From the NCBI GenBank assembly GCA_040754495.1, contig JBFMCO010000028.1, positions 1 to 64,000 on the forward strand: a stretch of 64,000 bases of DNA. The letters run 5' to 3'. Position numbers and translations under genes: made by a program. The stretch is from Candidatus Micrarchaeota archaeon. GTDB taxonomy: Archaea > Micrarchaeota > Micrarchaeia > Anstonellales > Bilamarchaeaceae. Of the stretch, positions 24,612 through 36,684 are shown piece after piece. Each line of letters opens with the position of its first letter. Positions within the stretch are counted from its first letter, which is position 1. The notes under the pieces were generated by a model. It ran no database searches. It was not told the DNA's origin and worked only from the letters and a program-made list of their open reading frames with translations.

Positions 24612-24908
24612 GCAGGGGTTGCCGAGTGGTCAAAGGCGCCAGATTCAGGTGCGCTTCCCTATTGAAACGATGTTTCAATGGGGCCCAAAGAACGGTTCGC
24701 CGTTCTTTGTGGTTTGGAAAAAAGCGCCCAAAAACGGGCTGTTGAAAAATCCTTCCGGATTTTTTTGCAAGTCAGTTTTGGGCCGCCTCGTCGAGAACGG
24801 CGTTCCGTTCTCGATGCGCAAGAACGCTTCGCGTTCTTGGCTGTTTCCTAAAAGGCGGAAACGTCTGGTCGGTTAGTCCGTTCGAGAGTTCAAATCTCTT
24901 CCCCTGCA
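24612..24908 (+). tRNA. tRNA-Leu(CAG) with 213-nt intron at 37/38 (24650-24862)
   Basis: 5' exon GCAGGGG...CCAGA TT CAG G; 3' exon G TCTGG...GTTCAAATCTCTTCCCCTGCA; relaxed BHB (TTCA/GGAA, bulges GG|T and AC|G). Confidence 0.9.
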
Positions 24909-33402: not shown

Positions 33403-33620
33403 GCCGCAGTAGCTCAGTGGGAGAGCACACCCGGTTCTTTTAGGCATTGTTCTGCTGAAAGAATCTGTGAAGCTGAAGACTCTCAGTGAGTCGGAGGCCC
33501 TTTTCGGGCTGCCTTATCAAGGCAGAAACGGTGGGGTCGCTTGTTCAATGCGCTTTTTTAGTAAAAAAGCGCCCAAAAAACGGGCTTGCTAAAACGCGCG
33601 GACAAATCAGGCCTGCGGCA
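33403..33620 (+). tRNA. tRNA-Phe(GAA) with three introns: 30/31 (33432-33471), 37/38 (33479-33527), 58/59 (33549-33605)
   Basis: Splices to GCCGCAG TA GCTC AGTGGGA GAGC A CACCG CT GAA GA CGGTG GGGTC GCTTG TTCAAAT CAGGC CTGCGGC A; BHB-type motifs at all three junctions. Confidence 0.88.
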
Positions 33621-33894
33621 TTTCCTTCTTTTTCTTCTGAACCTCGATGGCGGGAGCTTCCCGGAGCTTCTTCTGGACTTCCTTCATAGGGTAAATCCTG
33701 AGGCAAGGCTCGGCGTCATTCCAAATGATTATCACCGGCCCATTCGTCCAGCCGGACGCTTTTAGAGCGGCTCTTAGTTTCTTTGGAAGGGTTATCTGCC
33801 TCGCTCCACCGTCGATAAAAATACTCGCCGTGCTCGCGATTTCTCCACTCTCTCCAAATCCTTTAGGGCCGAAAAACCTATCAGTTCCAACCAT
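33607..33894 (-). CDS. AbrB/MraZ-like DNA-binding protein (element)
   Basis: IFIDGGARQITLPKKLRAAL...CLRIYP; stop codon lies in the att repeat. Confidence 0.6.
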   Translation of the reverse strand: MVGTDRFFGPKGFGESGEIASTASIFIDGGARQITLPKKLRAALKASGWTNGPVIIIWNDAEPCLRIYPMKEVQKKLREAPAIEVQKKKKEMPQA

Positions 33895-33899
33895 GCACA

Positions 33900-33981
33900 T
33901 GCACGTTAATGGTTGTTTATTTAAACCTTTTCATCTCGACACATGCAAAGGGTTTTAAATGTTATTAATGTTTGCAAATGC
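33900..33981. promoter_or_regulatory. Divergent promoter region of the element
   Basis: Inverted TTTAAACCTTT / AAAGGGTTTTAAA boxes and repeated (A)TGCA sites between divergent regulator genes. Confidence 0.5.
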
Positions 33982-34143
33982 ATGAAAACGCAAACAAATA
34001 TCTCAGCTATACGCCTCCATCGCCCGACGGTCGAGCGGCTCCGAAAGTTCAAGCCATACCCTGAAATGAGCGATGATAAGCTCCTCAACATTCTCATTGA
34101 CAAGCTGGAGGCCGCCGAGCCCAAACCGGAGGCATCATCGTGA
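33982..34143 (+). CDS. Ribbon-helix-helix-like small DNA-binding protein (element)
   Basis: SAIRLHRPTVERLRKFK...SDDKLLNILID pattern. Confidence 0.6.
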   Translation: MKTQTNISAIRLHRPTVERLRKFKPYPEMSDDKLLNILIDKLEAAEPKPEASS

Positions 34144-34334
34144 AGCACGGAGCTATCCTATGCGCCACAGTGGGCTATTTTTCAGACGATATCACGGCAG
34201 AATGTTTCAAGCTCATGACCCGCCAGCTCGCAAAAGCAGCGGAGGAAGTCGAGGAGGACGACGCCGCCGAGGATGAGGACGTTTGCCCGGTCTGCGGCTG
34301 CGAGCCCTGCGATTGCGAGGATGAGGATGGATGA
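34140..34334 (+). CDS. Small acidic protein with CPVCGCEPCDC motif (element)
   Basis: GTGA overlap with the upstream ORF; Cys cluster. Confidence 0.6.
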   Translation: MKHGAILCATVGYFSDDITAECFKLMTRQLAKAAEEVEEDDAAEDEDVCPVCGCEPCDCEDEDG

Positions 34335-34540
34335 AACGCGCCCTCCTGCTTCTTGGAATCGCGGCCTTCCTCATAATCGCATCGGTAACGGCACGGCGCG
34401 AGCCTGAAACCGTCCAGGGCTACCGGACAGAGGAGCATCTCACACGGGCCTATTCCACCATCAACCATACCGGGCCCAACCGGACGGCCCGATGCCGCCT
34501 CTTCATAGACGGCTCGATGAGCTGTGGGGCGAGGCCTTGA
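34331..34540 (+). CDS. Small secreted/membrane protein (element)
   Basis: ATGA overlap; signal-like MKRALLLLGIAAFLIIASVTA. Confidence 0.6.
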   Translation: MKRALLLLGIAAFLIIASVTARREPETVQGYRTEEHLTRAYSTINHTGPNRTARCRLFIDGSMSCGARP

Positions 34541-34691
34541 ACGCGCATGGGAGGCCGAAAGGCCGGGGGGCTGGCGGCGCACTGGTCGCCATAATCGCCT
34601 CTGCCAGCCCCTTTCCCGGTCCTCAAGCAGGACATAGTGGAGATGGGGCGGCGGACCTTCGGGCAACCGCTGCCCTTCTCTTTCTGACGTG

Positions 34692-34862
34692 ATGCTGATG
34701 CCGCCCGCCCGTTCCTATCCTCTCCGCCGCTGCCTTCGATGCTACCACGAAACCCGCGAGGAGGACGACCACTGCCGCCGCTGCGGCGGCCGGATGCAGT
34801 TTCTCTTTCAAGACCGCTTATCAGGAGGTCCTACCCATGTCCCCGCCCCAAAATTCCAATAA
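34692..34862 (+). CDS. 56-aa zinc-ribbon protein (element; absent from the ORF track)
   Basis: MLMPPARSYPLRRCLRCYHETREEDDHCRRCGGRMQF...; CxxC-x10-CxxC. Confidence 0.5.
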   Translation: MLMPPARSYPLRRCLRCYHETREEDDHCRRCGGRMQFLFQDRLSGGPTHVPAPKFQ

Positions 34863-35676
34863 GAATAAAGCCTCAAAAAAAGAGGAGTTTCTCGCTGGTA
34901 GCGAGCCGACCAGCGAGCCGCACGTCGAAAAACCAGCGAGCGCCCAAAAATCGCCCTCCGACGATGATTCCAAAAGGAATCTCGCTGGTTTCTCGCTACC
35001 CAGCGAGCCCAACGTCGGAGAATCAATACCAGTGTCCGCACACCGGTTGCAGTGGAAATTCTCGCTCCGTTCACACCGCCCGCAGCGCCCGCCTTTCCGC
35101 ACCGTGAAGATGCGGAACTGGGAGCAGCGCATATGGACGCATGAGGGCGCGACCTTCGTAAGCGGTCCGAATACGCTCCAACTCTTCCTGGAGCTCGGAA
35201 AGCGCCGCTCGACCGCCTCGACCTTGCATGCGGGCGAGCTCGGAAACCGCGCCTGGGACACGGACCGGAGCATTTTCGACAGCTTCTTAAGCTGCCAGTG
35301 GGGGGCCCGCTCAATTCGAGCGCCGAAATCCCCCAGGAACGCCGAAAATTCATGGTCCGTCATCTGCCCACCCGTCCTTATACTGGTGGGCTATGGCGTT
35401 ATGAAATGTATTATTTTGCCGGGCCCTCACCCTTCGGCTCGAAGTCCCCGCAGCGGCAGAGCGAACAGCTCCCCCCGGCGTCGTGGTCTCGCATCTCGTG
35501 GCCGCACGTGCATGTCATGCCAGGACCTCCAGCTCCTCCGGCTCGTCGTACAGGGGCCGGATGACGAGCTCCGGTTCATTACAGGCCTGCGGCAATTTTT
35601 TCCTACTGATTTCCGCTCCGGAATTGCGTTCCTCTGTGAAAAAAGTTACACTAATAAAGGCATACCCACAAAATGA
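34837..35676 (+). CDS. Element protein, possibly a degenerate replication initiator; reads through the distal att
   Basis: GGAGG RBS; AHRLQWKFSL...VKMRNWEQR segment loosely recalls putative Reps of small archaeal elements; the 3' half looks degenerate. Confidence 0.4.
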   Translation: MSPPQNSNKNKASKKEEFLAGSEPTSEPHVEKPASAQKSPSDDDSKRNLAGFSLPSEPNVGESIPVSAHRLQWKFSLRSHRPQRPPFRTVKMRNWEQRIWTHEGATFVSGPNTLQLFLELGKRRSTASTLHAGELGNRAWDTDRSIFDSFLSCQWGARSIRAPKSPRNAENSWSVICPPVLILVGYGVMKCIILPGPHPSARSPRSGRANSSPRRRGLASRGRTCMSCQDLQLLRLVVQGPDDELRFITGLRQFFPTDFRSGIAFLCEKSYTNKGIPTK

Positions 35677-35682
35677 TGCCTT

Positions 35683-36684
35683 ATGAAACTAGTTATACCA
35701 AAGGGCTACACGCCCGCTCTGGACGTGAGGAGAACCGAGGAGGCGATTCCGAGGATAAAATCCTTCTTCGAGAGGAGCCTTGCGGAGAACCTCAGGCTCG
35801 AGAGGGCCTCGGCGCCCCTGTTTGTCAGGAGAGGGACGGGCATAAACGACGACCTGAACGGCGTTGAGAGGAAGGTTTCGTTCGACATCATGGACGGCGC
35901 CATCGATGTCGAGGTGGTGAACTCGCTCGCGAAATGGAAGCGGATGGCTCTCGCCCGCTACGGCTATGGCCAAGGCGAGGGCATCTGGACCGACATGAAC
36001 GCCATCCGCCGCGACGAGGAGCTGGACAACCTCCACTCGGTGTACGTGGACCAGTGGGACTGGGAGAGGGTCATAAGCAGGGCGGAGAGGACGGTGGAGT
36101 TCCTCATGGCCGTGGTGGACCGCATCTACGATGCCATGAAGAGGACGGAAATGATGATATTCGACAGGTACGGCGTCGAGCCGGCATTGCCGGAACGCAT
36201 GGAATACGTCACAACGCACCAGCTCGAGGAGGCGCATCCGAACCTGTCAAGGAAGGAGAGGGAGGTCGTCGCGGCGAGGGGGGCCGGGGCCCTGTTCCTC
36301 ATGAAGATAGGGGGCAGGCTCAAAGACGGCAAGCCGCACGACGGCCGCGCCCCGGATTACGACGACTGGGAGCTGAACGGGGACATAATAGTCTGGAATC
36401 CAGTGCTCCAGTCCGCCTTCGAGCTCTCCTCCATGGGGATACGCGTGGACAAGGACGCGCTCCTGCGCCAGCTCCGCGAGGCCAACGCAATGGACCGCCT
36501 CGGACTGGAGTTCCACAGGATGCTCATGGATGGCGAGCTTCCGCTTTCGGTCGGCGGCGGGATAGGGCAGTCGAGGATGTGCATGTTCCTGCTCAGGAAG
36601 GCCCATATAGGCGAGGTGCAGGCCAGCGTCTGGCCCCCGGACATGATTTCCGAGCTGGAACGGCACGGCGTCAGGCTGCTCTAG
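35683..36684 (+). CDS. asnA: Aspartate--ammonia ligase (asparagine synthetase A)
   Basis: INDDLNGVER, EVVNSLAKWKR, HSVYVDQWDWE, RAPDYDDW, SVGGGIGQSR, HIGEVQASVWP. Confidence 0.96.
   Translation: MKLVIPKGYTPALDVRRTEEAIPRIKSFFERSLAENLRLERASAPLFVRRGTGINDDLNGVERKVSFDIMDGAIDVEVVNSLAKWKRMALARYGYGQGEGIWTDMNAIRRDEELDNLHSVYVDQWDWERVISRAERTVEFLMAVVDRIYDAMKRTEMMIFDRYGVEPALPERMEYVTTHQLEEAHPNLSRKEREVVAARGAGALFLMKIGGRLKDGKPHDGRAPDYDDWELNGDIIVWNPVLQSAFELSSMGIRVDKDALLRQLREANAMDRLGLEFHRMLMDGELPLSVGGGIGQSRMCMFLLRKAHIGEVQASVWPPDMISELERHGVRLL

Follow-up and report, generated by a model that had tools for sequence, protein, structure and literature searches.

The 1,974 bp from position 33621 to 35594 of the analysed window (the whole stretch of 64,000 nucleotides, by which all positions are numbered) are a site-specific insertion at the 3'-end of the tRNA-Phe gene of a small uncultured archaeon. 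The insertion is bounded by intact att cores, contains no recombinase gene and carries a truncated member of a protein family found on other mobile elements. It is probably a non-autonomous, partly degraded integrated mobile element, and is best read as comparable to the cis-mobilizable elements (CIMEs) of bacteria.

Insertion site and direct repeats

Comparison with related genomes revealed that tRNA-Phe and asnA are 2,062 bp apart in the host genome against 147-240 bp in six congeners (G017, G044, G047, G048, G051 and G054), all of which have an empty site with asnA as the host gene directly 3' of tRNA-Phe. The asnA gene (aspartate-ammonia ligase; 35683-36684, plus strand) was assigned by Pfam AsnA (E 2.5e-97) and by synteny. 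The difference in spacing indicates that 1,974 bp were inserted here in a site-specific manner; the converse, loss of DNA from the relatives, was considered and rejected. The insertion at tRNA-Phe proposed in the preliminary description is thus borne out by the six empty sites.

The 13-mer CAGGCCTGCGGCA, which corresponds to positions 61-73 of the tRNA-Phe, occurs at 33608-33620 (the proximal core, attL, plus strand) and again, without a mismatch, at 35582-35594. The direct repeat described earlier is therefore exact, and its two copies are the only ones in the whole 1.63-Mb assembly. The distal att (attR, 35574-35594, plus strand) reads GTTCATTACAGGCCTGCGGCA, its core being preceded by GTTCAtta and followed on the 3' side by a T-rich trailer such as lies behind tRNA-Phe in the congeners. 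The GC content of the left part of the element is 46-48% compared with about 60% in the flanks, and no paralogues of the element ORFs were found elsewhere in the host genome.

Alternatively, the repeat might be a chance match, in which case there would be no mobile element and the ORFs would be lineage-specific host genes. About 0.15 chance copies of the 13-mer are expected per genome, and extra copies in seven congeners, considered as further att sites, were rejected as chance matches inside conserved coding genes of the genus. Against this, the second copy is found less than 2 kb away and on the same strand, where base composition predicts only about 1e-4 copies for the 2.5 kb downstream, and the two copies enclose precisely the stretch that the six congeners lack. 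The distal copy is moreover followed by the original tRNA trailer, and the insert contains a gene whose other occurrences are on circular contigs and in an integrase island, so that a chance origin of the repeat is extremely improbable.

The tRNA-Phe gene and its introns

The tRNA-Phe(GAA) gene (33403-33620, plus strand), with its three introns, was missed by both ARAGORN and Rfam; it was dissected by hand and then validated against the intron-less gene of congener G053. Its four exons (33403-33431, 33472-33479, 33529-33548 and 33606-33620) are separated by intron 1 (33432-33471; position 30/31, 40 nt), intron 2 (33480-33528; about position 37/38, 49 nt) and intron 3 (33549-33605; T-loop position 58/59, 57 nt). 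The joined exons are identical to the 72-nt gene of G053, and the gene provides the only tRNA-Phe 3'-end of the assembly. The number of introns in tRNA-Phe varies from 0 to 3 within the genus, five different insertion positions being represented, and most congeners have no intron in the T-loop. Congener G011 has the same kind of T-loop intron as the host at the same position, while G006 and G041 have a different one; no element or integrase was found beside tRNA-Phe in any of these three. A hairpin module of the host's T-loop intron may be mobile, since it is dispersed in the host genome and across the genus.

The preliminary description held that integration had preceded the 58/59 intron, by which the att site is now broken. 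On this account the element entered an intron-less tRNA-Phe gene, and the later T-loop intron disrupted att and either locked the element in place or blocked further integration. Such an order would agree with the intron-less T-loop of most congeners, with the possible mobility of the hairpin module and with the proposal, attributed to Randau and Soll in PMC3293823, that a tRNA intron located at an att site keeps recombination from taking place there. It would also agree with the attR extension, in which GTTCA stands three bases upstream of the distal core, aligned as in a T-loop without an intron: five of the eight extra bases match the intron-less T-loop GTTCAAATCAGGCCTGCGGCA, whereas three of eight match the genomic register that contains the intron. 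The three-mismatch resemblance reported before is accordingly present, but its significance is marginal (binomial p 0.027-0.058, or about 0.03-0.06), and it suggests at most a weak likeness to the T-loop.

The intron lies 2 nt upstream of the 13-bp core, outside the region of identity, and the core is uninterrupted, contrary to the claim of a broken att site. Because the crossover falls inside the core, attL and attR come out the same for either order of events, and delivery of the intron together with the integrating element, as proposed in PMC3293823, would also yield the present-day sequence. No close relative offers an order for the two events, and the claim that integration came first is unsupported. 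T-loop introns in G011, G006 and G041, with neither element nor integrase nearby, also argue against the disruption of att by a later intron, which we consider quite unlikely. The related proposal, that the T-loop intron was gained after integration or brought with the element and alters the host-side arm of attL, so preventing excision and re-use of the site, is very unlikely in our judgement. If true, it would provide a natural example of tRNA introns blocking integrating elements, as has been proposed for them. The genus forms a natural series for this question, with tRNA-Phe genes of 0-3 introns and one occupied and six empty att sites, and with its resident integrases the protection of att sites by introns could be tested in vitro.

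Search for a recombinase

Pfam and PHROG gave no recombinase match on the element ORFs. A genome scan with PF00589 gave six matches, none of them within 33621-35594, and PF16795 had no match in the host genome; the element thus lacks a recombinase, as first described. An SSV-type split integrase was rejected, the gene that spans att being AbrB-like and the att sites having no int(N) or int(C) fragments.

Integrases were found elsewhere. In G382, a genome of the same order, a 9.4-kb low-GC island carries, immediately behind the 3'-end of tRNA-Ser, a tyrosine integrase of 399 aa, and the 15-bp repeat of this island also begins at the 3' strand of the T-stem. The host genome (G000) has three homologues of the G382 integrase, each of roughly 400 aa, on contigs C58, C44 and C60, two of them directly behind tRNA genes; no second att copy was found for the integrase elements on its contigs C58 and C44, which end too soon. 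No helper element with the same 13-bp core was detected in the host assembly, which is only 80% complete, and from which a helper might be absent.

The hallmark gene and its protein family

The largest gene of the element, here called the hallmark gene (34837-35676, plus strand; homologous part 34912-35340, about 143 aa), is a real gene and a truncated member of the P0001-P0022 family, which comprises 22 representatives of 240-317 aa. Its ORF is 32% identical to P0001 in pairwise alignment (E 2e-17), and the retained half is 39% identical over the domain. A family HMM built without the sequence of the host element matched it at positions 3-148 of 248 (E 2.5e-27), while HMM positions 149-248, the C-terminal half, had no match in six frames of the circularised element. 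Beyond 35340 the frame continues through non-homologous sequence and then across attR into host DNA.

Alignment of the 22 relatives showed that nearly invariant H, G, D, E and G residues of the C-terminal half are missing here, together with the second-half motifs HPxD..AHxVxE and GLxxDxSHxxKPExxG..SxEG..GxDW. The matched N-terminal 143 aa contain the motifs SxHxLxW and VKMRNWExRIW and a repeated S-E-P. Two imperfect 46-nt direct repeats with nested 8-mers, CTCGCTGG/CCAGCGAG, in the 5' part of the gene (34890-35025) encode the twice-repeated F/L-S-x-G-S-E-P motif of the family. AlphaFold models residues 80-250 with confidence as a single globular part, about half of which is kept in this copy.

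The hallmark protein had no match in Pfam, PHROG or PDB sequences, and the best folds for its model were the McsB kinase domain (Z 8.3) and TBP (Z 7.3-7.4). These matches, like those to guanidino kinases and amidoligase-like clusters, were only middling, and a fold assignment from them was dropped. The possible Rep of the preliminary description is a real gene, but one with no detectable Rep family or fold and without the conserved half of its own family. Codon-usage scoring at 34800-35600 was indecisive on the strand, which homology settled in favour of the plus strand; a 180-aa minus-strand ORF was rejected as an antisense shadow of the hallmark gene.

Members of the family are found on circular metagenomic contigs of 8.5-9.6 kb, some of which carry a packaging-type ATPase (phrog_2666, E 3.6e-13), and on the 9.4-kb island of G382. 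The element thereby ties a family with no Pfam, PHROG or solved relative to mobile elements of three kinds or more: virus-like circular contigs, circular contigs that have a different backbone, and islands with an integrase. No ORF of the element other than the hallmark matched the related contigs or the G382 island. Neither the plasmid nor the phage collection gave a blastn match to the element, scans of genome contigs and viral contigs with patterns from the hallmark alignment gave no relatives, and neither a close relative nor another 2-kb member of its kind was found in the searched collections.

Other genes of the element

The ORF next to the tRNA gene encodes an AbrB/MazE-like small regulator of 97 aa (33607-33900, minus strand), the last four codons and stop of which lie inside attL. 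It matched Pfam MraZ (E 0.0097, 16.3 bits against a cut-off of 23), and its structure neighbours in the Atlas were MazE and AbrB (TM 0.53-0.56; the model is of low confidence, pLDDT 0.57); a word-based protein search for sequence homologues returned the ORF itself alone. Computed translation of the circular form extended this frame by 22 codons (35583 down to 35518), after which it overlaps the following minus-strand ORF in an ATGA; by accident alone, a frame would stay open this long in about one case in three. A 35-aa Cys/His-rich ORF (35411-35518, minus strand) has no family match in Pfam or PHROG; only circularisation would couple its translation to that of the AbrB-like gene.

An AT-rich divergent control region with a GC dip (33901-33981) carries two TTTAAA motifs, 33920-33925 and 33954-33959, which lie about 20-28 nt from the start codons of the genes they face; from the usual spacing of archaeal TATA boxes these are putative promoters. 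The plus-strand operon begins with an RHH-like mini-gene of 53 aa (33982-34143; ATG at 33982, ORF open from 33943), for which Pfam DUF7557 (E 0.14) and an Atlas feature score of 0.92 to the DUF7557 cluster are leads only. It is followed by a 64-aa acidic, Cys-rich ORF (34140-34334), which overlaps the genes on both sides by 4 nt and has no family match in Pfam or PHROG, by a 69-aa ORF with a hydrophobic N-terminal segment, a signal or membrane anchor (34331-34540; weak matches only), and by a 57-aa zinc-ribbon ORF (34689-34862; Pfam DZR_2 E 0.0033 and DZR E 0.0068, both below cut-off). The labels AbrB-like, RHH-like and Zn-ribbon all correspond to matches that are sub-threshold.

Nature of the element

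Integration would have rebuilt the end of the tRNA gene and left a second core before the original T-rich trailer and asnA. We infer that integration was most likely the work of a tyrosine integrase, like those beside tRNA 3'-ends in the host genome and in the G382 island, which either acted in trans or disappeared afterwards through an internal deletion. Such a deletion would also have taken the conserved C-terminal half of the hallmark, with a breakpoint near 35335-35400. The remnant would then consist of the divergent control region, the AbrB-like gene overlapping att, the RHH-led operon of mini-genes and half a hallmark gene. With its two att cores intact, the element could still be excised by a matching integrase, as with bacterial cis-mobilizable elements. 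The searched collections contain no close relative, which counts against this reading; the deletion and a full-length parent are presumed.

Two features of the layout also count against partial degradation. The compact order, with 4-nt start/stop overlaps, two TATA-like boxes and ATGA coupling across attP, fits an intact mini-element better; and the AbrB-like gene adjoins the tRNA on the opposite strand, where G382, C44 and C58 have a same-strand integrase. Because the AbrB-like gene occupies the tRNA side in this orientation, simple loss of an att-adjacent integrase fails to explain the layout.

Instead, the element might be intact and lack an integrase by nature, as a satellite (of mini-plasmid or virus-satellite type) that uses the tRNA-Phe-specific integrase of a helper, with a functional short hallmark protein and with attP in the AbrB-like gene as an integration-state switch. 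Integration would then remove the 22-aa tail of the AbrB-like protein and uncouple the Zn-finger gene. The tightly coupled ORFs and divergent control region, the identical att cores, the AbrB-like frame that stays open across attP up to the ATGA overlap, and the well-conserved retained half of the hallmark are all consistent with such a satellite. On the other hand, the hallmark is without residues nearly invariant in its 22 relatives, the assembly has no other element of the same att core and no second copy of any element gene, the open frame of 22 codons could well be accidental, and no collection searched held a further 2-kb member of the kind; an intact satellite is therefore unlikely.

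The partly degraded, non-autonomous element remains our preferred reading. The satellite or decayed mini-plasmid or virus of the preliminary description is retained in so far as an integrase-less insertion with one gene tied to mobile elements is present, but the part concerning the intron is unsupported. Small, probably defective elements integrated at tRNA genes are common in archaea, and taken alone this is one more of them; to our knowledge, mobile elements of this small-genome archaeal lineage are hardly known.

Comparison with known systems

In elements of the SSV1/pTN3 type attP lies inside the integrase gene, which is split upon integration. The present element is similar in that its attP lies within a gene whose product would be changed by integration. 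It differs in that the gene is a regulator gene and not an integrase gene: what is split encodes an AbrB-like protein of roughly 100 aa, only a 22-aa tail is lost and no recombinase is involved. With the P0001-P0022 family the element shares the N-terminal 143 aa of its protein at 32-39% identity, whereas the second half of the family is absent and no other gene is common to the element and the contigs that carry the family.

Archaeal elements of the pNOB8 type, as summarised from She et al. in PMC3293823, have an intact tyrosine integrase beside the rebuilt tRNA gene. This layout, as given in that summary, is exactly present in the related elements of G382 and of the host contigs C44 and C58. 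Our element likewise targets a tRNA 3'-end and has a short direct repeat of it, but differs from the summarised type in having no integrase and in having an opposite-strand AbrB-like regulator as neighbour of the tRNA.

CIMEs have been described in bacteria as decayed conjugative elements that retain intact attL and attR, have lost their integration and transfer genes and are mobilised by accretion with an ICE (ICEberg 2.0, PMC6323972). Unlike bacterial CIMEs, the present element has an archaeal host and relatives that resemble small viruses or plasmids. Like them, it combines intact attL and attR with the absence of integration and transfer genes, and would be movable only by a foreign recombinase.

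Integration site

Comparison of the intervals between tRNA-Phe and asnA, the host aspartate-ammonia ligase gene, showed that the gap is 147-240 bp in six congeners (G017, G044, G047, G048, G051 and G054) and 2,062 bp in the source genome, and that the extra DNA is exactly the stretch bracketed by two 13-bp repeats. The att core CAGGCCTGCGGCA forms the last 13 bases of tRNA-Phe (positions 61-73) and recurs exactly at 35582-35594. These are the only two copies of the 13-mer in the whole 1.63-Mb assembly; by base composition, chance would give about 0.15 copies in a genome, and about 1e-4 on the same strand at most 2.5 kb downstream. A T-rich trailer resembling that behind the tRNA-Phe of the congeners follows the distal repeat, and the GC content of the left part of the insert is 46-48%, compared with about 60% in the surroundings. 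No paralogue of any element ORF was found in the source genome, no element ORF matched a recombinase, and genome-wide scans with PF00589 and PF16795 gave zero matches within the element. The preliminary description of an integrated, integrase-less element at tRNA-Phe is thus supported by the confirmed repeat, the empty congener sites and the lack of a recombinase match. Additional copies of the 13-mer in seven congeners were considered as att sites and rejected, being chance matches within coding genes.

The tRNA-Phe gene and its introns

The tRNA-Phe(GAA) gene (33403-33620, plus strand) was missed by ARAGORN and by Rfam. It contains three plus-strand introns, at 33432-33471 (position 30/31), 33480-33528 (about 37/38) and 33549-33605 (T-loop, 58/59), and their removal leaves 72 nt. 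Sequence comparison revealed that the spliced form is identical to the tRNA-Phe gene of congener G053, which lacks introns, and this identity fixes the three intron positions. Across the tRNA-Phe loci of about 30 congeners (L003-L063) the gene carries between 0 and 3 introns, with five positions in use, namely the D-loop (G003), 30/31, 37/38 and the T-loop at 58/59 or 59/60, and it looks like a hotspot for gaining and losing introns. The tRNA-Phe of G011 has a hairpin-type T-loop intron of the same type and position as that in the window, while G006 and G041 carry a different one, shifted one nucleotide further; neither an element nor an integrase was found at tRNA-Phe in these three genomes. 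The T-loop is used in this genus by two unrelated intron families. Since the hairpin module of the T-loop intron is dispersed across the source genome and its congeners, the intron may be mobile and repeatedly gained. Its first hairpin, GCGCTTTTTT..AAAAAAGCGC plus CCAAAA, behaves like a small dispersed module, recurring in the source genome at C22:18777-18805, C14:44063-44091, C56:56590-56608 and window 24718-24734, and at many further sites in congeners.

It had been suggested that the T-loop intron breaks the att site. This was not borne out: the intron ends 2 nt upstream of the core, so the identity segment is unbroken. The proposed resemblance of the distal att to an intron-less T-loop held in part. 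The register fits, with GTTCA three bases upstream of the distal core in the intron-less T-loop register; the extra bases beyond the core match the intron-less T-loop at only 5 of 8 positions (p 0.027-0.058) and the intron-containing register at 3 of 8. Integration of the element before arrival of the intron found no support, because a crossover within the core yields the same attL (proximal) and attR (distal) whether the intron came before, came after or was delivered with an intron-bearing attP, a route proposed for Caldiarchaeum (PMC3293823). The asnA protein is only 64-70% identical to those of congeners, and none of the relatives is near enough to show which event came first; we regard gain of the intron after integration as quite improbable.

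Gene content of the element

The AbrB-like gene (97 aa, 33900-33607, minus strand) gave a sub-threshold MraZ/AbrB match (E 0.0097), and the structures nearest to its product in the ESM Atlas are of the MazE/AbrB type (TM 0.53-0.56). Its stop and final four codons are contained in attL; in the circularised element the frame runs 22 codons more, up to an ATGA overlap with a Cys/His-rich ORF of 35 aa (35518-35411, minus strand). Two TTTAAA boxes lie in an AT-rich spacer (33901-33981), at a distance of about 20-28 nt from the ATG that each of them faces. The spacer is followed by small plus-strand ORFs, most of which overlap their neighbours by 4 nt. First comes an RHH-like ORF with weak DUF7557 signals, then an acidic Cys-rich ORF and an ORF with a hydrophobic N-terminus. 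The series also includes a zinc-ribbon ORF (DZR_2, E 0.0033) and ends with a long ORF from 34837, the hallmark gene.

A word-based search returned a single relative of the hallmark ORF (P0001, 32% identity), while an exhaustive profile search recovered 22 cluster representatives of 184-317 aa, most of 240-300 aa. The family alignment revealed a disordered N-terminus with the motif F/L-S-x-G-S-E-P present twice, the motifs SGHxLxW and VKMRNWExRIW, and, in the second half, HPxD..AHxVxE and GLxxDxSHxxKPExxG..SxEG..GxDW. The family HMM, from which the window sequence was excluded, matched the window ORF over positions 3-148 of 248 (E 2.5e-27); the circularised element, translated in all six frames, contained no match to positions 149-248. 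The hallmark ORF is a real gene, present only as about half. Because the kept half is well conserved and the remainder unrecognisable, a break at a discrete point near 35335-35400 is suggested rather than slow decay. The AlphaFold model of P0001 (mean pLDDT 78.8) shows a single confidently predicted globular part, residues 80-250, of which the window copy keeps about half. The F/L-S-x-G-S-E-P doublet is conserved among members only about 30% identical (alignment A2), and in the window a 46-nt DNA repeat bearing inverted 8-mers (34890-35025) falls at the same place; either the protein motif or the DNA repeat may be what is conserved. Sequence comparison with Pfam, PHROG and PDB gave no match for the family, and its fold matches, to the McsB kinase domain (Z 8.3) and TBP (Z 7.3-7.4), are middling, so the label Rep, taken from gene context, stays a guess; comparison with amidoligase-like clusters gave TM values below 0.4.

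Distribution of the hallmark family and origin of the element

In a sample of 400 genomes of the phylum, G382, from the same order, was the only one besides the source genome to carry the hallmark gene. Its copy is part of a low-GC island of 9.4 kb, which also contains restriction-modification genes and a tyrosine integrase of 399 aa, encoded directly 3' of tRNA-Ser and in the same orientation. A 15-bp repeat bounds the island; it starts at the T-stem 3' strand, as the window repeat does, and runs through the acceptor end. The island (L070, G382:C8; 5011-5207 and 14663-14685) carries at its distal end three copies of the att core CGCCGACGAGGAGA, spaced 91 and 83 bp, with hairpin-rich spacers between the copies; these may be scars left by successive integration events or may form a small array of att sites.

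The hallmark contigs L072 (9,609 bp), L073 (8,540 bp) and L074 (9,042 bp) are probably complete circles, since their termini overlap by 55, 30 and 55 nt, respectively. L066, L073 and L074 are probably small viruses because all three carry a common module whose 186-aa ATPase matches phrog_2666 (E 3.6e-13), annotated as terminase large subunit. The backbone of L067 and L072 differs from theirs, and the five contigs have only a trio of genes in common, namely the hallmark gene and two others of about 90 and about 97 aa. All five are metagenomic, with nearly all ORFs lacking any family. They probably represent an undescribed small archaeal virus group and a plasmid-like relative.

The source genome encodes three homologues of the G382 island integrase (25-31% identity). 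Two of its three tyrosine integrases of about 400 aa are encoded immediately downstream of a tRNA gene and in the same orientation, at C58:2103-3480 (multi-intron tRNA) and C44:13720-15014 (tRNA-His), and mark further integrated elements. The far ends of both are cut off by contig ends.

The most probable history is that a hallmark-family mobile element was inserted at tRNA-Phe by a tyrosine integrase that recombined the 13-bp core. The integrase now missing may never have been present, or it and the second half of the hallmark gene may both have been lost through an internal deletion. A natural satellite, integrase-less from the start, is in play given the orderly gene layout and the reading frame spanning att, but the truncation of the hallmark gene speaks against it and is the main reason why a deletion remnant is favoured. 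Whether deletion remnant or satellite, the element fits the bacterial concept of cis-mobilizable elements, which, like the element in the window, have intact attL and attR and no integration genes (PMC6323972).
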